Shown here in pieces: positions 36,196 through 46,994 of a stretch of 62,200 nucleotides of DNA. The notes under the pieces are model-generated. The model was not told the DNA's origin, made no database searches, and saw nothing but the letters and a program-made list of their open reading frames with translations. The position numbers and the translations under genes are program-made. How positions within the stretch are numbered: the stretch's first letter is position 1; each line of letters starts with the position of its first letter. Origin of the DNA: Craspedostauros australis (Eukaryota); the NCBI GenBank assembly GCA_030167865.1, contig JALAGF010000009.1, positions 1 to 62,200 of the forward strand. Reading direction: 5' to 3'.

Positions 36196-39100
36196 ATGTT
36201 CCCCCAGCTTCGTGAGCATGGAAGCGAATTGAAGATGCTCGAGTTGCTGGAATACACACGAATGCACACAAATGAATGGAAGGGAGTCTTGCGACCCACA
36301 CACAAAGGGAAGAGCAAGGGCGAAGCGGTAGTCATCCGTTCCCATCTCCCTTCAGGTGTGAAGGGAAACGTCTCCTGTGTCAACAAACGAGAGAGACAAG
36401 GATCGTGGAAACGCAGCGACACGACTCTCCGATCCTTCACTGTTGGTGAAGAGATCCTCAGACTTGAAGACGCAGTTGACAAGGCGAGGGAGGCCATGGA
36501 GGACGTCCATTCCGCTTCTTTGTCAGAGGACGCTGCGGCTCCTTCTCGAAGCGTTGCCGAAGACATGAACGAAGCTGATCCAATGAATAGCAGCGGCGGC
36601 ATCAAGCAAGATGCTGCCATTGTCGATAGCATAGATTCTCCAAGCGATTCACCCGCGTTGATCGACAAACGGCAGGCGCACAACGTTGGACAATCGGAAG
36701 TTCCTGATTCTGGAACCGACCTGGTGACCATGGTGCCAGCGCAGACAGTCGCGTCGACACGACCAACACAGTCAAAAGAGATCGCAAGCAACGATTCCAA
36801 CGGTGCATCGCACTTTGGCGGTGGCGATGCTGGCGGTGGACAAGAAGTGAGCACGGGAGACGCAGCAGACCTCCGCAATGGTGGACCCACCAGAAGCAGC
36901 ACCAGCAGCAGCCGCAGTTCTCGACGATTCAAGAATCCCATGCAGGCTGCAATGTTCGGGAACCGGCTGCGCGGCAAGGTCTCCGACGCGGCAAAGAGGA
37001 CACAGGAACGGGGAAGAATGCTGCGCTCCAACGTCCTCCAAGCGGCTCGGCAGACCGGCGGCCGCGTTCGAGAGACTGTGGAGAAGACAAAGACGTCACT
37101 TCGGGAGCGCATTGGAAGTGGTGATCAAATCGACGTGAATCATCGTGACGGCGTCAACATGCATGTGGATGTGGATGCAAATGTAGATGTGGATGACTCG
37201 AATGGCACAGGTGCAAGTTCAGATGCAGGTGGGGAATCGCATCGCTTGGATATATCCCAAAGCAATGGCCCTCCCTTTGACGATGCCGCAGCCGTTGAGG
37301 ATGGTCCAGAAGGCGCCAATCCCACAACAGTGAAGCATGCGATGCCGGAGGAGCAGCGTGAGGACAGCGCGAATGCGGATATATCTGCCAATGTAGATAC
37401 CAAAGGTCTCGTGGATGTCCATGCCAATGTCGATGCCAATGGCAATAGCGACTCGGAGATTGAATCCGGAATGGCAGCCCAAGAGACCGAATTGGAACTG
37501 CGCGAAGGTCAAAACGAGATGGTTGACTCGTCACGGCGATCACAGGAAGCAGCAGCCACGACAGATGCAGAGAGTGGCATGAACGATGAAGCACTTCCGG
37601 CTTTGCCACCCACTCCTGGCGACACCATCGCTGAAGAACCTATCCCCGCAAATCGAGGGGTTGCGGACATCGAAACAGAAGAAATCCCAGGCGCCACCAT
37701 CCAAGCGTCACTCCCCGACAATCTCCGCACCAAGAGCGATGTCTCAAAGGCCAAGGAGCCTCCTGCACCCGTTCGGCGACCCACCACCACCAGAAATGCT
37801 AAAAGTGGCACCGCCAACACCAAGAAGGCGGCAAAGGGCATGATGGCAGCCGCCCGTGCACTCCGAGCGTCCACCTCGGACGTGGGAAAAACGATGGTCC
37901 GGAAGATGGCAAAGAGGAGGACAGCGTCATCAGATGCATTGGACGACGTGACTGAAGGAGCACAAGACGAAAGGTCTAAAATCAAGCTCAACCGCACCAG
38001 CAGCACATCACAGCGACCATCGGCGCTAGATGCGAATGCTCCAGTTTGTGATTCGCTGCTTCCAGCGACACAAATGGCGACAAGCAGCAACGAACGGAAC
38101 GATGTCAGCGCAGATCTTGACAAGTTGATACTCGAGGCTCCACAGCAGGATGCAACTCGAATCGATCCATCGACAACAACAATTCACAACGACAACGTTG
38201 TTCAGCGGAAGGTATCCGCGGCGGACACGGGGTGTGAAGGCAAGAGCACCGAAATGGTTGGTGGAAATGTCGATAGCAAGACGTTTGGGGTCAACGAGAA
38301 ACAGATGAAAGAAGCAAAGAAGGCAATGGTGGCCGTCTCTTCAGTCGCCAAGGCCATCACGGCGAAATCCAAGCACGTGGGGAAGACCATCGCACGAAGG
38401 ATGAACTCGAAGAGAATGCAATCATCATCTGACGTCGACGATGGCATCCTGGACAGGACCACTGCAAAAGAGGTTGGGAACCTAGCACCTCCATCTCCAT
38501 CTGCATCGTCACCTCTATCTCCGTCCATATCACCCGTGTGCACACAAACCCAAACCCGAACGAAGGACAAAGTCACTGCCAGGGACGCCACAGAGGCGGT
38601 GCCACAAGCATCCCCTTCCGCTTTCACTTCTACTTCCACGCGAACTTCACCCGTGCTGGCTTCGAGAACACACCAGACCAAGTCGGAGAACAGTCTCAGA
38701 AGCATCAGCTCGACATTGCTGGTGCCCACTGACGACATGTCATCCAGACGAATTGCAAGCATCCAAAGTGTTGACACGCATGGCAATCGTAGTCGGAAGC
38801 AGCTGGATGTGACCATCATCTTCATCATCCATTGCTGCTTGTATTCCCTCGATCAGATGATCGTCCATCGTCACGAGATCTTCCACTCCGCCTTTCCATG
38901 GCCCGCCGTCGTGGGCATGCTCCTTGCTGCGTTTGCAATCGGCACGACGGTGGATACTACGACCATCACGGTATGGTTCGATCGCAATGTCCTTGGCATT
39001 GCAGCAGATCCATTCATGCGAGGCAGGCAACTATCTCAAGCGCGGGGTACAGCTGATATCGATGACATAGATGCAACGGCCATCAACCGCCAAGCCATGG

Positions 39101-40371
39101 GTATGCAGCAGAACGGCAATCGCTTCCGACGATTTGCATCCCGCGTGAGACGCGCTCATCAGAGACGGCAAAGATCGTCCCAGCCCATCGATTCAGGCGC
39201 ACCCCGGAGTCCGTCCACGAATCAGTCGGACAGCCCTGCACGGATGGCGCGGAATGCTGGTATCGTCGCCAGGTTGCCTCCTGGCATCCAGATGAGCTTG
39301 CGAAGGTTCAATTCGGGAAGAGCGAAGGCACCACAGAATGGCGACAGACCCAGAACAGATATGGACCATCCCCAAGACGATGATGGCGACTTGATCTCGA
39401 TCGATGCCGACATCTCGTTGGGATCGTACGGCGTGGAGGAGGCCAAGGCCAACCAGCTCTGCCATCAGGAGGATTTGACCCCCTTCTTCGAGTTGCGTGG
39501 AATGGACGTCTTCCTCTCCGACGACGCTGAGGAGGAGGCCGGCACTCATCCCTTCCTGATCCAAAACGGACTGCGCAGTGTACCCACGTTCATCTTCAAC
39601 GTGATGACGCAGTGGGGCAACATCCTCCTGTACTTCAAGATGCCCGACTGGGTGAAGGATTTTGATGAGAGCCTGGTGGAGGCCTCGACAGACGACGACA
39701 GAACAAGGGCCTTGAAGCGCTTCCTCAAGGGAGACGACGAGTATCGCCGAGAACGACTGAAGATCGTACCTCACCTCGTTGCGGCCCCGCTGCCCATCCG
39801 GATGATGGCCCCGAAGGATTCCGTGTTCAAGATGCATCACCACGACCTGGTGACCACCATCTACAACCAACACGGTGCCGACGCCACGACGAACTCATGC
39901 TGCACCGTCGAAGTCACGGTCGACCTGATGAGCAACCACGCCATCCGTGGCATGGCGGGCATAATGAAACGATACATCAAGAACATCGCGCTGGACTTGG
40001 CCATCGTGATCCGCCAGCCCAACAAGACTGCGGACCAAACACCGACGACGGTCGAGACGGAAGGTGGGGGAGTTGGAATTAACGTTGGCGCTAACAGTGG
40101 CGCTGACGTTGCCGTCGGTGCTGGTGCTTGCACAGGCACAGAAGCAGAACCATCCGAGGCCAAATTTGCTGACGCGGCCCATGTCAGCGGTGCTGCAACT
40201 CCAAGGGAACCCGAGGCTGTGCTCGGCCTCTTCTGTTTGAAGAATCTGGACGTCTCATTGTGCGAGCAGAAGCCGGAGCGGTACGAAGGCGTCGATCCAG
40301 CTTCCATCGAACAAACGGAGGCGTTGCTGTTGCAGAAGTACGCCGAGATGGCCAGGGCATCGCCTCAGTAG
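36196..40371 (+). CDS. Membrane-anchored DUF1336 (EDR2 C-terminal-like) domain protein with a long disordered N-terminus; start uncertain
   Basis: C-terminal FELRGMDVF, PTFIFNV, LKRFLKGDDEYRRERLKIVP, VEVTVDL, IALDLAIVI and EPEAVLG. Two hydrophobic segments at approx. 38810-38945. Confidence 0.7.
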   Translation: MFPQLREHGSELKMLELLEYTRMHTNEWKGVLRPTHKGKSKGEAVVIRSHLPSGVKGNVSCVNKRERQGSWKRSDTTLRSFTVGEEILRLEDAVDKAREAMEDVHSASLSEDAAAPSRSVAEDMNEADPMNSSGGIKQDAAIVDSIDSPSDSPALIDKRQAHNVGQSEVPDSGTDLVTMVPAQTVASTRPTQSKEIASNDSNGASHFGGGDAGGGQEVSTGDAADLRNGGPTRSSTSSSRSSRRFKNPMQAAMFGNRLRGKVSDAAKRTQERGRMLRSNVLQAARQTGGRVRETVEKTKTSLRERIGSGDQIDVNHRDGVNMHVDVDANVDVDDSNGTGASSDAGGESHRLDISQSNGPPFDDAAAVEDGPEGANPTTVKHAMPEEQREDSANADISANVDTKGLVDVHANVDANGNSDSEIESGMAAQETELELREGQNEMVDSSRRSQEAAATTDAESGMNDEALPALPPTPGDTIAEEPIPANRGVADIETEEIPGATIQASLPDNLRTKSDVSKAKEPPAPVRRPTTTRNAKSGTANTKKAAKGMMAAARALRASTSDVGKTMVRKMAKRRTASSDALDDVTEGAQDERSKIKLNRTSSTSQRPSALDANAPVCDSLLPATQMATSSNERNDVSADLDKLILEAPQQDATRIDPSTTTIHNDNVVQRKVSAADTGCEGKSTEMVGGNVDSKTFGVNEKQMKEAKKAMVAVSSVAKAITAKSKHVGKTIARRMNSKRMQSSSDVDDGILDRTTAKEVGNLAPPSPSASSPLSPSISPVCTQTQTRTKDKVTARDATEAVPQASPSAFTSTSTRTSPVLASRTHQTKSENSLRSISSTLLVPTDDMSSRRIASIQSVDTHGNRSRKQLDVTIIFIIHCCLYSLDQMIVHRHEIFHSAFPWPAVVGMLLAAFAIGTTVDTTTITVWFDRNVLGIAADPFMRGRQLSQARGTADIDDIDATAINRQAMGMQQNGNRFRRFASRVRRAHQRRQRSSQPIDSGAPRSPSTNQSDSPARMARNAGIVARLPPGIQMSLRRFNSGRAKAPQNGDRPRTDMDHPQDDDGDLISIDADISLGSYGVEEAKANQLCHQEDLTPFFELRGMDVFLSDDAEEEAGTHPFLIQNGLRSVPTFIFNVMTQWGNILLYFKMPDWVKDFDESLVEASTDDDRTRALKRFLKGDDEYRRERLKIVPHLVAAPLPIRMMAPKDSVFKMHHHDLVTTIYNQHGADATTNSCCTVEVTVDLMSNHAIRGMAGIMKRYIKNIALDLAIVIRQPNKTADQTPTTVETEGGGVGINVGANSGADVAVGAGACTGTEAEPSEAKFADAAHVSGAATPREPEAVLGLFCLKNLDVSLCEQKPERYEGVDPASIEQTEALLLQKYAEMARASPQ

Positions 40372-40817
40372 GTAGCGTGCGTACAAGTATGCACGAGTAT
40401 GCACGTATGTGAAGTAACACAGTATCCTCTCTCTCTCCAAGACAGAGTCGACTTGTATGTATTTTATCTTGATTTTCACACGATTGGTTGTTGGACGTAC
40501 ATGTTGGATGCTGTGTTGCTTCCATTTCACCACCTCGGATTCATTCAGGAAATTTTACGAAACTGCATGAGATGCTTCAGATTCGGCTCTCTCGGATGTA
40601 CCGATCCGATGTGAAGCATTTGCTATTGTGGCGTGTTGCAATAATGGTCAATACTATTGTGTTAGGTAATGTTAAGATGTCTTCTTTGATTCTCTCTCTC
40701 GTTACATCCTCGTACAAACAGGCGCGCACGGGAATTACGTATGTGTTTGTGCGCTATCTCTTTCTTTTGGTCATGCCGCGTCTTAAGCGGCGTGACGTGT
40801 CTGCTGCTGGTGGGCGC

Positions 40818-42089
40818 TTAGGCCAAGGCACCTCCCTGGTTGGAAAGTCCGGCGCTTCCTCCCTTGGTGAGCTTGGTGTGGAGGGAGGCGGCGTAGATGG
40901 CGAGGGCGAGGGTTCCGAAGGTGAAGAAAGTGAGGGCGAACTTCTGTCCTCCGGTGGTGGCGGATCCTCCTCCGACGGAGTAGCTGGTGCCCTTGATGGA
41001 GATGTCACCGCTCTCGTCGTATGCGCCTCCTCGGATGGATGTGATGTAGTCGCACACGCGGTCCTCGGTGTCGGCCTGGTTGGCGTAGGCGTCGTAGTCA
41101 TCGATTCCTCCGCTGAATCCTCCGACGGTTTCGCACTTGGCGGACATCTCGTACAGCTGCTGGCACATGTCGACGGTCTCGGCCTCCTTCTCTTCCTCGT
41201 CACCGTTGTTGTTGTTGTTGTTGTCGTCGGCGTTCTCATCTTCCTCTTCGACGACCAGGCAGGACACACAACTGTCCTCGGAGTAGGTGGTCTTGAGCAG
41301 GGCGTGGGAGAGCTTCATTGGGTAGCCGTCGCCGTCCATGAGGTAGTCCTCGACGTCCTTGCTGGAGTCCTGGTTGTAGCAGTTCTCATCGTCGAAGACA
41401 CCGATCTTGATCTTGGTTCCCTGCGAGGAGCAGACTGGTCCAGCCCAGAGGCCGCCGGCATCATCATCCTCGGGATCGTAGATGGCGACGCACTCGAGGA
41501 ACTCGGTGGCATCAAGGTATCCGTTGGCCTCCATGTTCTCGATCTTCTGGCACTCGTCGTAGCACGAGTCGCAGTCGACGTTCTGGAGCTTGCGGCCGTT
41601 GTTGTTGCCGTCGTCGGCCTCGTCCTCGTCGTTCTGGCATTCGTCGCAGGCTTGGCACATCTCCTCCTGGAGCTCTGTCTGGTACTCGACGGTGGCCTCG
41701 AGGTACTCCTCAAGCTCGATCATGTACTCGCCGTATCCGTAGTTGCAGTTGCTGCAGGAGTTGCTGGGGCAGAGGCGGAAGATGACGAAGCGCTTGGTGG
41801 CGAGGACGGTCTCGGAGTCCTCATCCTCGGCGAGCTCCTCGTCGAAGGTGCGCACGAACTGGCATTGCTCGAACTTGACGGCATATCCGGAGATGTCGAC
41901 CTCGACCTCCTCGTCCTGGCCGTTCTGGTCGAGGGCACGGAGCTGGGAGTTGGCGGTTGGGCGGGCACCGCTGACGAGGGTGTTGACGTAGTTGGACTCG
42001 GCCTTGTTGGTTGCCTTGGGGGCGAATGGGTTGGCCGAGACGGCGACGACGGTGGTGAGGAGGGTGGTGAATGCGGTGGCGAACTTCAT
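40818..42089 (-). CDS. SIN1: Silicanin-1-like silica deposition vesicle membrane protein (423 aa)
   Basis: Signal peptide, RXL motifs (RAL, RKL), acidic N-rich luminal domain with many Cys (VKFEQCQFVR, FVIFRLCP, YGEYMIELEEYL), one TM and a short tail LHTKLTKGG...QGGALA. Confidence 0.85.
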   Translation of the reverse strand: MKFATAFTTLLTTVVAVSANPFAPKATNKAESNYVNTLVSGARPTANSQLRALDQNGQDEEVEVDISGYAVKFEQCQFVRTFDEELAEDEDSETVLATKRFVIFRLCPSNSCSNCNYGYGEYMIELEEYLEATVEYQTELQEEMCQACDECQNDEDEADDGNNNGRKLQNVDCDSCYDECQKIENMEANGYLDATEFLECVAIYDPEDDDAGGLWAGPVCSSQGTKIKIGVFDDENCYNQDSSKDVEDYLMDGDGYPMKLSHALLKTTYSEDSCVSCLVVEEEDENADDNNNNNNGDEEEKEAETVDMCQQLYEMSAKCETVGGFSGGIDDYDAYANQADTEDRVCDYITSIRGGAYDESGDISIKGTSYSVGGGSATTGGQKFALTFFTFGTLALAIYAASLHTKLTKGGSAGLSNQGGALA

Positions 42090-43480
42090 CTTGGATTGTC
42101 TTTGGTTGCTGTTTGGCTTTTGTGGAGGCTCGAAGCTAATTTGTGTGATGATGGAGTGAGGGTTTGATTCGTGAGGAAGTTCGCGATCGAACGGAAAGGT
42201 GTGTGGAGCGTGGTGTCACCTCGGTTTGTTGCTTTCACGGATGCGATGGAAGGAAGGAAGGAAGGAAGGATACTGTGCAGTGCTGCACGGTGAGACCAGA
42301 GGAGAGCAGGGGACGTTGTGTTTGAGCGGATGGGCTGTATTCGCACTCCAAGAGGAGAAGAAACGAGTGATGTTGACCGCAACGCCGGAGAATAGCGATT
42401 GGTATTAGCACACCTTGTCCGAGCGGGAGCGCTTACACATGCTCGTCTATCCGCAAGCACAGAGTCGTACGCATACCACGCACAATAGACGAGATATCAC
42501 ATCGAGCTGCGCGCAGCCACGCAGTCCAGCATTCGTTGAGGCGTTGGGCAATTTGGCAGTGGTGATGTTGTTGCTTCCTCAAACCAAAGTTGTGTGGTGA
42601 GAATCGTCTTGTTGATCGCGAATTTCGCTAATGGCCAAATTAACATATTCAATTGTGAATATGTAATATGTAGCCGGAAATGACAATCTACATAGGAGGA
42701 TTGGCGAAATCACATACAACACCTTCCGAGGAGCTTCCACCCCCTAAATATGCATGTTTCCAAGTATCTTGAGCGTGAAGACCAGCGGAATGATGATTTA
42801 AATAACTTGTGTTGAGTATCATGCTGGGGATACCCCTGAATGAGCGACATGAAGGGGTGGCAGGATCCCTTTTGCGATCGTCTGCAATGATAGCAACATC
42901 CAGCTCTGAATGAATCTAATGCTGCAACGTTCCTCACGTGCAGATGCGTTGAATTTAGAGATGTGTCGCTCAATACAACCGTACTTAACGTCTCAACGCC
43001 AATGTCATCGTCAACGGCTCTATTCCATGGTCGCCAAGAGAATTGGAAACGCCCATCGCCACACAAATCCCAGCTTTCGTTCGCGACGTTTGGTGAGTAA
43101 AGAACGAGATTTGGTGTTGTTATCGCCAAGGACGGTATGGTTGTTCCGTTGAGTATGTGCGCACCGAACAACTTGTGGTGCCCAATGTATGTGTGTGTCA
43201 CGAGTATGTGTTCTGCACCCTGTACTTGCAGATACATGCAAGGCAAAATTTGCTTCGTTGTCTGTTGCTTCACGACACCAAACCACACCAGTGTGCTACT
43301 CGTCCTGTTGTGAGCGTTCGCTGATCATCATCAGCAGCATCATCATTACAACACCATCGTCGTCGTCGACATTCCCTCGCTCATCATCATCATCATCATC
43401 TCACATCCTCTCAATCACAAAAACGATCTTCTACCTCACACAAAACCGAAGAACACAAAGACCAAACCAGAACAGCAAAG

Positions 43481-44692
43481 ATGAAGTTCCTCCTTTCCGT
43501 CCTCTCCATGGCCATCACGGCCACCGCCGCTGCCACCGCCCCAATGAAGCCAGTCAAGATCGACTCCCTCAAGGCCGAATCCAAGATCGGACAGTCCCTC
43601 ATGAGCAAGGCCCGTCGTCTCGAGAACGCCGACGACCAGGAGGTCGACTTCACCTGGGTCGCTGACTTCTCCATCAAGTTCCAGGGCTGCTTCCACATCA
43701 ACCAGTGGAACGAGGAGGCCGACGGCGAGGAGGATGTTCGCATCCAGAGCAAGCGCCTCGTCCGCTTCCGCCTGTGCCCAACGGACACCTGCTCCATCGA
43801 GAACGCCGGAGGATGCAACTCCGGATACGGAGACTACATCGTCGACATGGACAGCTTCCTCGAGTCCTACTTCGAGGGCATGGAGGAGTACAACGAGCAG
43901 CTGTGCGAGTACACCGCCAACTACAAGTGCGACTGCGAGGACGATGATGGCAAGGGCGATGACTTCGACCGCGACATCTGCGAGTACGACTGCTTCGTCG
44001 CCAACGGCATCGAGGACGTCTGCGCCGAGAACAACCCATACGAGGACGACGAACAGCAGCAGCAGGAGCAGTTCGAGGTGCGCGAGTACATCGAGTGCAA
44101 GGAGGCCGAGTTCCAAGAAGATGACAACAACAACAACAACCGTAAGCTCGACGAGGAAGAGGAGGTCCAGTACTTCGTCGGACCATACTGCGCAGAGAAC
44201 GGAGGTGCCATCTACCTTGGTATGTTCACCGACGACGAGTGCACCGTCTTCGCCGATGGATACGGAGGAGCCAACGCCTACAGCCAGCTCGCCGGAGACA
44301 ACCTCCCATTCGCCAGCACCAGCCTCATCACCATGGACTGCTTCGACTGCATGGAGCCAGAGGACGTCAACGAGAACGACAACGGAAACGACAACCAGGA
44401 CGAGGACCTTGTCGTCGAGATGTGCGAACGCCTCTACCAGAGTGCCGGAAAGTGCGAGTCTCCACTCGCTGCCACTGGTGTCATCGACCAGGCCAACGAC
44501 AACGCATGCAACTACATCTCCGGAATCTCCACCAACCTCCAGAACGGATTCATCACCCAAGCAAAGGCCAACGCCAACAAGACCGCCTCCATCTTCATCG
44601 GCATCTTCGTCGTCGCCTTCGTCCTCCTCGCCGCCTACGTGTTCTTCCTCCGAACCAAGTTGGATCGTGCCAGCATCAACCTCTCGGAGTAA
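43481..44692 (+). CDS. Second, divergent silicanin-1-family protein (403 aa)
   Basis: Signal peptide, RRL and RKL motifs, SIKFQGC, VRFRLCP, YGDYIVDMDSFL, YFVGPYC, MCERLYQSAGKCE, ACNYI, C-terminal TM and short tail. Confidence 0.82.
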   Translation: MKFLLSVLSMAITATAAATAPMKPVKIDSLKAESKIGQSLMSKARRLENADDQEVDFTWVADFSIKFQGCFHINQWNEEADGEEDVRIQSKRLVRFRLCPTDTCSIENAGGCNSGYGDYIVDMDSFLESYFEGMEEYNEQLCEYTANYKCDCEDDDGKGDDFDRDICEYDCFVANGIEDVCAENNPYEDDEQQQQEQFEVREYIECKEAEFQEDDNNNNNRKLDEEEEVQYFVGPYCAENGGAIYLGMFTDDECTVFADGYGGANAYSQLAGDNLPFASTSLITMDCFDCMEPEDVNENDNGNDNQDEDLVVEMCERLYQSAGKCESPLAATGVIDQANDNACNYISGISTNLQNGFITQAKANANKTASIFIGIFVVAFVLLAAYVFFLRTKLDRASINLSE

Positions 44693-45630
44693 GCCTTTCG
44701 CCGTTGCCAGTCTCCTTGCGAATGGCATCCGCAGGCTTGGGCGACCAACTCAAGACTTCAGCTCATCATTGTTGGATGACGAACATTGCCAGTAGACCTA
44801 CCAGCAACAACAACCGCAAGTGCCTTGCAACAACACATGCAACCGCAAAACCAAGAGGACGGCGGACTTGCAGCTCGCCGCGACCCATGAAACAGACAGG
44901 AGTAGTAACGCCATGCAGCGCAAAACAGCAACAACTCACTGTCCTGTAACCAATTATTCTAAGTAAACGTACCGTAATCTCAAACCAAACAGCGATACTT
45001 GTGCTTCACGCGTTCTCGGTGCAAAACTGACTAACTTGACGATAGACTTTAGGTTCCCCTGCCGAAGGACGTATAACTGGCTGATTTCTTACAATCTACC
45101 GCAGCTTCCATCCACGAACGAAATTCTCGGATCCTTTTGGTTCATCTTTGTTGGTGTTTGGTTGGGGTTTGCGTGTTTGATGACCAAAGTGAGGGAATCG
45201 ATGCAGTTCTGAGCAGAACAAAGCGACACAAAGCAGAACACCACGCCATCTTCAACAGCTCTCTTCGTCGCCTCTCCACGCGCATTCGAAACATCGTTCT
45301 CGTCCTCCGCTCGTACACGGACGCAGAGAGGGAACCGTCTCAAGACGACGCTGTATCATCTTGTGCTCTGCAAGAGAAGGCGAGGCAACGCAGTCTGGCA
45401 CGAACACAGGAGTGCAGGAGTGCAGACACGGATACAAAGGCACACCCACAGGAGTACGAGTATACTTGCAGCGATCCTGCTCGTTCAAGTATTCTATCAC
45501 ATGGTATTATACAATAGCACACAATCCAATATAGAATAATATAATACCTTCCTATTATATAATATCTTGGAACATCATTCGCGACACTGCACGAACACAA
45601 CCAGGAAGACTGCGCAAAGAACGATCGACG

Positions 45631-46994
45631 ATGGCATCGCTCAATGTCGCAGGTTCCACGTTGCGGTACAAGCGCCTGCTGATGGTGATCAAGCAGACGG
45701 CGTTCGAGGAGTACTCGCAGCTGAAGCGTCGCGGACAGGCGCCCAAGGCCCTGCGCTGGAAACGGCTGGAGAATCGGTACCAATCCCACAAGAAGTGCGT
45801 CAACAGCCTCATCACCATCCTCAAGCGCAACGACGTCGATCTCACCTGCGTCAACCGCGTGGAGCTGGATCGGCAGCATCTGGAGGACGTCGATCTCATG
45901 CTGTCGGTCGGTGGCGACGGCACCGTGCTCAGCTCGGCTCATTTTTTGGACCACGGGACGATACCCTTGCTGGGGATCAATTCCGATCCCAACATCACGC
46001 TGGCGGACGTTCAGGTCAAGAAGAAGGTTGTGGATGAACGGAGGTACGTTATCATTGGGAGATTGCACGCTTGGATCCAGAAAGAGGGAGCGAGAGAGAC
46101 AGACAGAACTGCTGTCTGCTGTGTGCAACCTCAAATGTTCGCGGATCGCTTGCTGCTTGACTCACACCTCTGTTCTCGTACGTACGAACAATCAACGTTA
46201 TTGGCGCTGATGGCCATACTGCTGGTGCAAATGATGCAAACAACGCAATCGATGCAAACAATATGTTCATGATGACCAACGGTATGGCAAACGCGATGAA
46301 TCCACAAACTCATACTCGTATGTATAATAGATCCCACGGAGCCTTGTGCTACACGTCACCGATCAGCATGGCGGATGACCTACCAAGGATATTGCACGGC
46401 GATGCGGACGACGCGCTGGGGATGAGGAAGAGGATCAGGTGCAAGGTCAAGTCCACCTTTTCCGAGACCAGATTGGTGCCAGCGCTCAACGACCTCCTCA
46501 TCGCCAACCCCAGCCCCGCGGCCGTGTCTCGTTTCCGCCTCGGTTGGCTGGGAGAGGCAGATCAGCACGGCGCGCAGGTGCCCAAGAGCCATTACGGGAC
46601 GGTCACGCGCTTCGGTGGCACGGCCTATTCGGTGCAGCACAGCCTCAACGTCTGGTCCTCCGGGATGTGGGTCTGCACTTCCACCGGTTCCACAGCAGCC
46701 ATGGCCGCGGCCGGTGGCAAGGTCATGCAACTCGACGACCCCGACCTGCAGTACCTCATCCGCGAGCACATGATGGAGAACTCCAACGAGGACGTCGATT
46801 CCACCGTCGACAACCGCTTCTTCAACCAAGGCAAGATGCACCTGCGATGGAATTCGCACAAAGGCAGGATATTCATCGACGGCTCACATCTCAGCCACAA
46901 CATCGAGCTGGGGGATGAGATCATGATCGACAACGACGCGCCGCCGTTGCAGATATTCTTGCATGACAACAAGACGAGGCCCGCCGTCGCGTAG
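45631..46994 (+). CDS. NAD(H) kinase, NADK3-like; exons 45631-46043, 46331-46994
   Basis: SVGGDGT, LGINSDP, ERR/SHGALC across the intron, ALNDLLIANPSPAAVSRF and SSGMWVCTSTGSTAAMAAAGG. Confidence 0.85.

Follow-up and report, generated by a model that had tools for sequence, protein, structure and literature searches.

An ortholog of silicanin-1 and its divergently transcribed ancient paralog in the diatom Craspedostauros australis: a candidate pair of partners

Two genes transcribed away from each other in Craspedostauros australis, denoted gene A and gene B, have been characterized in a stretch of 62,200 nucleotides (nt), positions 1–62,200 of the forward strand of contig JALAGF010000009.1 (GCA_030167865.1), referred to below as the window. 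By comparison of the protein sequences, the locus is shown to comprise two ancient, divergently oriented paralogs of the diatom SiMat7-like/silicanin superfamily: gene A is an ortholog of silicanin-1 (Sin1), a silicanin in the strict sense, and gene B is an ortholog from a separate second clade, equally conserved across pennate and centric diatoms. On balance, we believe that the two proteins work together as an A:B pair. Both genes belong to described families; it is the partnership hypothesis that is new, and it can be tested cheaply.

Sin1 resides in the membrane of the silica deposition vesicle (SDV) as a type-I protein and has a disulfide-rich acidic luminal domain that clusters at low pH, works with long-chain polyamines in silica formation, and is thought to be cut near the heptapeptide GGQKFAL and then built into the wall (PMC5525289). 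The SiMat7-like family has 15 members in Thalassiosira pseudonana and 10 in Phaeodactylum tricornutum, forming four subfamilies, and is characterized by an N-terminal endoplasmic reticulum (ER) signal, an RXL cleavage site, eight conserved cysteines and a C-terminal transmembrane (TM) segment (PMC5501833). Silicanin homologs number 4–13 per diatom and 0–2 in Parmales (PMC10328945).

Two genuine genes of one superfamily

The features of the locus are listed below; signal peptides were called by eye from the hydrophobic MKF... N-termini, and protein positions are given in amino acids (aa).

40818–42089, minus strand: gene A, strict-sense silicanin (Sin1 ortholog by sequence comparison), 423 aa, one exon, stop codon 40818–40820
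42033–42089, minus strand: gene A signal-peptide-like N-terminus, approximately aa 1–19, MKFATAFTTLLTTVVAVSA, called by eye; MKF and a hydrophobic stretch in the clade consensus
41931–41939, minus strand: gene A RXL propeptide site R51-A-L53; R51 invariant and L53 at least 90% conserved in the clade-A alignment
40953–41930, minus strand: gene A luminal domain, aa 54–379, cysteine-rich, acidic and asparagine-rich, 18 cysteines
40932–40952, minus strand: gene A GGQKFAL juxtamembrane motif, aa 380–386, exact motif match
40881–40940, minus strand: gene A transmembrane helix, aa 384–403; hydropathy peak at 384–385, modelled helix 380–409
40821–40880, minus strand: gene A cytosolic tail, aa 404–423, HTKLTKGGSAGLSNQGGALA, 20 aa, ending in NQGGALA
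42090–43480, no strand: spacer between the start codons, 1391 bp, with putative promoter(s) and 5' leaders
43481–44692, plus strand: gene B, clade-B SiMat7-like/silicanin-like protein, 403 aa, one exon, stop codon 44690–44692
43481–43540, plus strand: gene B signal-peptide-like N-terminus, approximately aa 1–20, called by eye; hydropathy window at residues 3–4
43613–43621, plus strand: gene B RXL site R45-R-L47; R45 invariant in the clade-B alignment
43622–44587, plus strand: gene B luminal cysteine-rich acidic domain, aa 48–369; all 18 cysteines at least 90% conserved
44588–44650, plus strand: gene B transmembrane helix, aa 370–390; hydropathy up to 2.93, modelled helix 367–397, no GGQKFAL before it
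44651–44689, plus strand: gene B cytosolic tail, aa 391–403, RTKLDRASINLSE, 13 aa, ending in RASINLSE; T392–L401 at least 90% conserved

The listing of open reading frames (ORFs) places the two genes head-to-head, with a gap of 1391 bp from ATG to ATG, and agrees exactly with the divergent intronless ORFs of 423 and 403 aa reported in a preliminary description of this sequence. Both reading frames are unbroken, and homologs, partly derived from MMETSP transcripts, cover up to 100% of each query; therefore genes A and B need no introns. At E ≤ 1e-3 there are 680 homologs of gene A and 1014 of gene B, the closest being 64% identical for A and 70% for B (Staurosira transcriptome). With hundreds of homologs each, A and B are genuine genes and not chance ORFs. 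The exact protein of gene B is present in a large protein collection, on a contig of 1629 nt, and that of gene A is absent from the same collection, with the best match at 64%. The Pfam search yielded nothing significant for A or B, and their profiles found no relative in bacterial and archaeal genome contigs.

The two proteins align end to end in BLASTP (27% identity, E 2e-29), and profile–profile comparison relates them with a probability of 100% (E 5.7e-50, 361 columns). Each of the core motifs listed in the preliminary description, KF..C, FRLCP, YG.Y, GP.C, MC..LY..(S/A)(A/G)KCE and C.YI, is found in both translations. The architecture that it had outlined, with RXL motifs, a cysteine-rich acidic and asparagine-rich lumen and one TM segment, is likewise borne out: we count exactly 18 cysteines in A and exactly 18 in B, the RXL sites are RAL and RRL, aspartate and glutamate make up approximately 20% of both proteins, asparagine runs occur in both, and each has a single C-terminal hydrophobic segment. 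All four features of the SiMat7-like family are thus seen in both genes, the ER signal by eye.

Clade sequence sets (121 for A, 153 for B) were drawn from the homologs listed. The formal alignments hold 114 clade-A and 146 clade-B rows after seven over-long or truncated rows were dropped from each (P0012, P0030, P0067, P0085, P0095, P0103 and P0121 from clade A; P0144, P0157, P0167, P0190, P0205, P0243 and P0249 from clade B); genes A and B carry the labels P0001 and P0002. In a FastTree phylogeny of 241 sequences (121 from A and 120 from B, counting the window proteins), the two match lists fall on either side of one branch with support 100. In the trees of separated domains described below, no split within the sampled family is deeper than that between A and all others (branch 1.46, support 100 in the IQ-TREE phylogeny), therefore A and B are not a recent sister pair. 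Among the matches listed, the named members of clade A are the pennates Grammatophora, Synedropsis, Pseudo-nitzschia and Nitzschia, and clade B comprises pennates together with the centrics Eucampia, Attheya and Dactyliosolen, its taxa being diatoms. As centrics are present in clade B, the A/B split predates the divergence of pennates and centrics, and the old duplication proposed earlier from the sharing of core motifs is upheld by this tree.

Two distinct clade-B clusters, P0155 and P0259, both list a longest contig of 80254 nt, so that a single contig of some lineage may bear a pair of clade-B copies; in MMETSP1360, too, there are two clade-B proteins (P0186 and P0227). With tblastn and with three profile hidden Markov models over 738 stop-to-stop segments, we looked for further relatives in the window and saw none besides genes A and B.

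By the strict definition, a silicanin is a type-I protein with a signal peptide, an RXL site, an N/Q-rich domain with 18 conserved cysteines, one TM helix, a tail of approximately 20 aa, and a BLAST E-value below 1e-50 to T. pseudonana Sin1, GGQKFAL at the transition between the lumen and the TM segment being the proposed silicanin protease site (PMC5525289). In gene A we observe the type-I topology, a signal peptide (by eye), the RXL site, an N/Q-rich lumen with 18 cysteines that contains an N6 run, GGQKFAL, and a tail of 20 aa. Across clade A, 13 of its cysteines are invariant, four others reach at least 90% conservation, and C151 reaches 89%; 18 cysteines are present in 97 of the 121 sequences and GGQKFAL in 114, gene A included. 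The most common C-terminal end is QGGAMA (57 of 121), with QGGALA in seven. The median protein size is 424 aa in clade A vs. 396 aa in clade B, and the pennate Sin1 homologs of 415–434 aa in Table S2 of PMC5525289 fit the former and not the latter; Table S1 of the same paper gives E 1e-107 for a Staurosira Sin1 homolog. The orthology of gene A to Sin1 is accepted because of GGQKFAL, the 18 cysteines, the RXL site, the 20-aa GGALA tail and the protein size of its clade, in line with the earlier designation of the left gene as Sin1-type.

Type-I topology and an RXL site are also found in gene B (R45-R-L47, TM 370–390, 13-aa tail), and its TM anchor is much more hydrophobic than that of gene A. 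Eighteen cysteines are present in 126 of the 153 clade-B sequences. Sixteen cysteine columns are common to the two clades; the clade-specific cysteines (C148 and C173 in A, C152 and C181 in B) fall in a variable stretch in which the alignment could be shifted. GGQKFAL is absent from gene B and from all 153 clade-B sequences (0/153), as is the shorter GQKF (0/153), and the C-termini of the clade read SINLSE (36 of 153), SINLSD (33), SINLAE (14) or similar. As it matches the Sin1-type gene A with an E-value of only 2e-29, gene B would probably fail the 1e-50 cut-off to T. pseudonana Sin1. Hence the preliminary naming of the locus as a pair of the silicanin-1 family stands in part: both genes are in the Sin1/SiMat7-like superfamily, but gene B fails one strict silicanin criterion (GGQKFAL) and fits the wider SiMat7-like family. 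The difference between the tails pointed out at the same time holds for the distal parts, which are clade-specific and conserved, and not for the juxtamembrane parts, where [S/T]KL followed by a basic residue is common to both clades. In the protein atlas, all clusters nearest to gene B are diatom ones annotated as “hypothetical protein.”

Each protein has a second RXL in a low-confidence acidic luminal loop, at aa 166–168 of gene A (41586–41594; R166 at least 90% conserved, consensus RRL) and at aa 221–223 of gene B (44141–44149; R221 and L223 at least 90% conserved). The two positions are non-homologous, and in each clade the second luminal RXL may be a second processing site.

Long antisense ORFs cross both genes, one of 531 aa at 40572–42167 on the plus strand, exceeding gene A in size, and one of 430 aa at 43436–44728 on the minus strand across gene B. 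Their translations are G/V/L-rich and of low complexity; these ORFs seem to arise as a side effect of the GAN-rich acidic coding strand, and programs that call ORFs could be misled by them.

Linkage of the two genes and the spacer between them

The linkage of A and B appears to be conserved in other diatoms, as judged from contig sizes and gene identifiers. The homolog tables give the longest contig for each protein cluster, and we used an equal nt size in the A and B lists as a proxy for linkage. Among the 21 clade-A matches with a contig of at least 4.5 kb, eight have a clade-B match on a contig of identical size (4928, 6429, 7434, 9300, 17053, 17797, 52373 and 95953 nt), and on the four shortest of these contigs both complete genes must sit within a few kb. 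Across the eight pairs, A-distances and B-distances correlate with r 0.90, a value reached in 3 of 5000 permutations and in keeping with an origin of each pair in a single genome; after adding the pairs of the window and of Nitzschia inconspicua, r is 0.87 (0 of 5000 permutations). The eight pairs differ mutually by 14–41% in A, therefore several lineages are represented.

The T. pseudonana family list includes 24708, 24710 (Sin1) and 24711, which correspond to UniProt B8CBQ3, B8CBQ8 and B8CBQ9 (supplements of PMC5501833 and PMC9894196); other consecutive members in this species are 20670/20671 and 6330/23191 (consecutive XM numbers), and in P. tricornutum, 44662/44663, with 44667 nearby, and 33857/33858. 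We read consecutive identifiers as gene adjacency. Of the three genes concerned in either species, one from the consecutive pair has an XM number in another block than the remaining two, which might mean the opposite strand. The passages of PMC5501833 that were searched hold nothing on gene arrangement, and no T. pseudonana entry is among the best 120 matches obtained with the centric Eucampia clade-B protein as a query. The conserved linkage that the preliminary description proposed to check for is thus supported indirectly, by the eight equal-size contig pairs, their correlation and the consecutive identifiers of the two model diatoms.

Bidirectional promoters have divergent transcription start sites close together (classically, less than approximately 1 kb), shared elements, and correlated expression for which the common region is required. 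In the spacer we see no convincing gene, the one candidate being an ORF of 175 aa with no Pfam match. Spacer repeats are weak, the best being an 18-nt inverted match (78%) between the A/C-rich leaders of the two genes. The word CACACAAA has 10 copies in the window vs. 3.2 expected, three of them in the spacer, each pointing toward the nearer gene; it was picked post hoc, after the repeats had been seen, and is a lead only. Two further observations in the spacer are a short (GGAA)n microsatellite at 42245–42268, approximately 160 bp upstream of the gene A start codon, and a sub-threshold Rfam match to the SNORD103 model, resembling a C/D-box small nucleolar RNA, at 42552–42639 on the plus strand (27 bits vs. 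the gathering threshold of 45, E 0.023).

For T. pseudonana, expression correlations were calculated from log2 fold changes at 13 time points (Dataset S1 of PMC5501833): Tp24710 correlates with Tp24711 at r 0.84 and with Tp24708 at r 0.77. All three are in the table of valve-SDV proteins as SiMat7-like, with a signal peptide and one TM segment; the valve-SDV proteome of this species contains nine SiMat7-like proteins (PMC9894196). In the open-access full text searched, a “Sin1 promoter” is mentioned only in PMC5525289, and the papers retrieved from it on bidirectional promoters, diatoms and silica include none on silicanins by title or abstract.

The neighbors of the pair are, to the left, an ORF of 1391 aa at 36196–40371 on the plus strand with an EDR2_C domain (E 1e-16), convergent with the 3' end of gene A, and, to the right, downstream of gene B, an ORF at 45631–46272 on the plus strand with an NAD kinase N-terminal domain (E 4.4e-10). 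Both neighbors are unrelated to silica proteins.

Predicted pairing, natural fusions and rival explanations

AlphaFold2 models built with the clade alignments have a mean predicted local distance difference test (pLDDT) score of 73.3 and a predicted template modeling (pTM) score of 0.65 for gene A, and 72.1 and 0.68 for gene B. Both have folded luminal cores, in which the secondary-structure elements follow one another in the same order, and acidic loops that are disordered. In a controlled complex prediction, residues 55–380 of A with residues 48–362 of B score 0.73, compared to 0.00 for the best of three controls; the 0.73 mark is reached by 51 of 78 solved complexes and by 2 of 108 mismatched pairs. 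At least 89% of contacts recur between runs, and partner pLDDT is 76 or higher. Foldseek yields no PDB match at E ≤ 1e-3 for either model, and as no solved structure resembles either fold, the pass is not a memory of a solved complex. The predicted interface consists of residues 79–101, 123–125, 314–318 and 332–365 of A and 73–93, 120–125, 320–324 and 339–357 of B. The controlled model supports binding of A to B through the luminal domains.

A search of 1.84 billion representatives with the clade-B profile retrieves 1389 family members at E ≤ 1e-3, and among the best 150 of these, the B model outscores the A model for 147. The three exceptions, P0352 (735 aa), P0391 (1070 aa) and P0394 (715 aa), are mutually divergent, and in each an A-type luminal domain (313–349 bits on the A model) is followed by a B-like domain with neither a TM segment nor GGQKFAL between them; the domain order in P0391 is A-B-A, and the junction Y[V/I]DAPL is common to P0391 and P0394. 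Their N-terminal domains join clade A with support 100 (FastTree of 145 rows; IQ-TREE LG+C20 of 51 rows), and the second domains form one group (96) within a 27-row group that also holds clade B (97). Under the gene-fusion (“Rosetta stone”) principle, fused domains point to cooperating partners, and at face value these fusions of A-type with B-side domains point to cooperating domains. The suggestion of silicanin hetero-oligomers made in the preliminary description has therefore gained ground, from the controlled prediction and from the natural fusions. In T. pseudonana, bd856 and bd1852, each being one half, together make up a single SiMat7-like gene (PMC5501833), which might be a long form related to the fusions.

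If the partnership is as we picture it, A and B would be co-produced during wall formation, encounter each other in the SDV membrane and form an A:B heterodimer via their luminal domains; A would supply the part shed into silica, and B, remaining in the membrane, would present adaptors such as the dAnk proteins with a further cytosolic tail unlike that of A. The membrane receptors of the dAnk pore-pattern proteins are unknown, Sin1 having been suggested for the dAnk2 complex (PMC9894196). The close divergent linkage, kept in several lineages, would hold A and B co-inherited and, possibly, co-regulated from the shared spacer. In a more far-reaching form, Sin1 would be one half of an obligate heterodimeric SDV receptor, with a head-to-head clade-B partner since early diatoms, A shedding at GGQKFAL and B recruiting a dAnk-type adaptor via its SINLSE tail, the locus acting as a module that keeps stoichiometry, and the fusions being its single-chain versions; this form we regard as unlikely.

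The most serious competing explanation is that A and B are independent paralogs never separated after an old inverted duplication, with own promoters, each acting in the SDV alone or as a homo-oligomer; it is a possibility to be reckoned with, though we are inclined to doubt it. A number of observations weigh against the partnership, and several of them agree well with such independence. The predicted interface is built from homologous segments of the two chains and is pseudo-symmetric, so it may reflect a family-wide homodimer mode, and the recombinant Sin1 luminal domain self-assembles alone (PMC5525289). The marks of the complex test were set on microbes, the alignments were unused, and a pass is silent on which family member binds. 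The interface is more conserved than the rest of the protein (0.82 vs. 0.74 in A, p 0.055; 0.79 vs. 0.65 in B, p 0.0018), a modest difference that is confounded by the disordered loops. The second domains of the fusions are outside core clade B, and all three fusions are gene predictions, P0352 looking corrupted after approximately residue 590. The head-to-head orientation is seen in the window only, linkage elsewhere coming from contig sizes and identifiers; 13 of the 21 long clade-A contigs have no equal-size partner among the B matches listed, the listed N. inconspicua copies are on separate contigs (4,610,928 and 3,510,965 nt), and Tp24711 and Pt44662/3 are candidate clade-B orthologs only. 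Moreover, consecutive identifiers are frequent in the family (Tp20670/20671, Tp6330/23191 and Pt33857/33858), and a clustered or paired arrangement may be a general habit of SiMat7-like genes.

The same holds for regulation: 1391 bp is roomy enough for two independent promoters and contains no strong shared element that we could find, r 0.84 is reached by 31% of all T. pseudonana family pairs, and Tp20670 and Tp20671, with consecutive identifiers, show r –0.09 over the 13 time points. Co-expression, family-wide in these data (PMC5501833), is a family trait and not proof of a shared promoter, and the co-regulation of the two neighbors postulated in the preliminary description receives no specific backing from it. 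What speaks for the A:B pair and against independent paralogs is that the A/B split is the deepest in the family, yet the linkage seems to have been kept in at least eight diverged lineages, on contigs down to 4928 nt, that natural fusions of A-type and B-side domains exist, and that the heterodimer model beat all three controls.

It is far less probable, and in our opinion very improbable, that gene B encodes a general secretory or cell-surface protein with an old Sin1-like fold, its adjacency to gene A being functionally meaningless. Such a role would be consistent with the lack of GGQKFAL and of the Sin1-type tail, with the lack of a Pfam family, with the “hypothetical protein” annotation of the nearest atlas clusters, and with the fact that clade B is not treated by name in the open-access PMC and bioRxiv full text searched. 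However, gene B has retained an RXL site, as is typical of biosilica proteins, along with 16 of the 18 cysteine positions of Sin1 and the acidic asparagine-rich loops, and the clade-B taxa listed are diatoms; nine SiMat7-like proteins are in the T. pseudonana valve-SDV proteome (PMC9894196), and all 10 P. tricornutum members peak with cell division (PMC5501833).

The same full-text searches (open-access PMC and bioRxiv) gave nothing on an arrangement of Sin1 with a neighbor or on a Sin1 heteromer, and no paper mentioning Tp24711, B8CBQ9 or Phatr3_J44662/3 by these names. Few diatom silica proteins have a knockout phenotype, and Sin1 is among them. Were it to have a fixed partner with a different conserved tail, this would name a concrete candidate for a dAnk receptor, could account for residual function in sin1 knockouts, and would lead to a simple experiment on the neighbor of Sin1; a conserved divergent arrangement would, in addition, provide diatom engineering with a small natural promoter that serves two genes. 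Without such a partnership, the locus would be an ordinary pair from the family.

Comparison with known systems

SAP1 and SAP3 cross the SDV membrane once, carry an ER signal and have a luminal part trapped in silica; their sequences are distinct from Sin1 (PMC5647440). None of our searches linked A or B to the SAPs, and the SAP family has been ruled out as an identity of gene B, SAP and Sin1 sequences being distinct according to that paper. Similar in size to gene B are Tp24711 (44.4 kDa) and Tp24708 (44.2 kDa), which have one TM segment and a signal peptide and are on the valve-SDV list (PMC9894196).

Gene A resembles Sin1 (formerly SiMat7, THAPSDRAFT_24710; PMC5525289, PMC6599040) in the type-I topology, signal peptide and RXL site, in the 18-cysteine lumen with asparagine-rich acidic clusters, in the exact GGQKFAL, and in a 20-aa tail ending in GGAxA, the proteins being 423 and 426 aa long, respectively. 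Sin1 comes from a different diatom, T. pseudonana, whereas the nearest named relatives of gene A are araphid pennates.

According to the papers on Sin1 (PMC5525289, PMC6599040), knockout of sin1 has a phenotype, and Sin2 (THAPSDRAFT_6586) is 55% identical to Sin1. Like gene B, Sin2 is a second such protein with the same domain structure in one genome. Sin2 has nevertheless been ruled out as an identity of gene B by divergence (55% identity for Sin2 vs. 27% for gene B). With 27% identity to gene A and no GGQKFAL, gene B is not a recent duplicate of the Sin2 type but a representative of a far older lineage.

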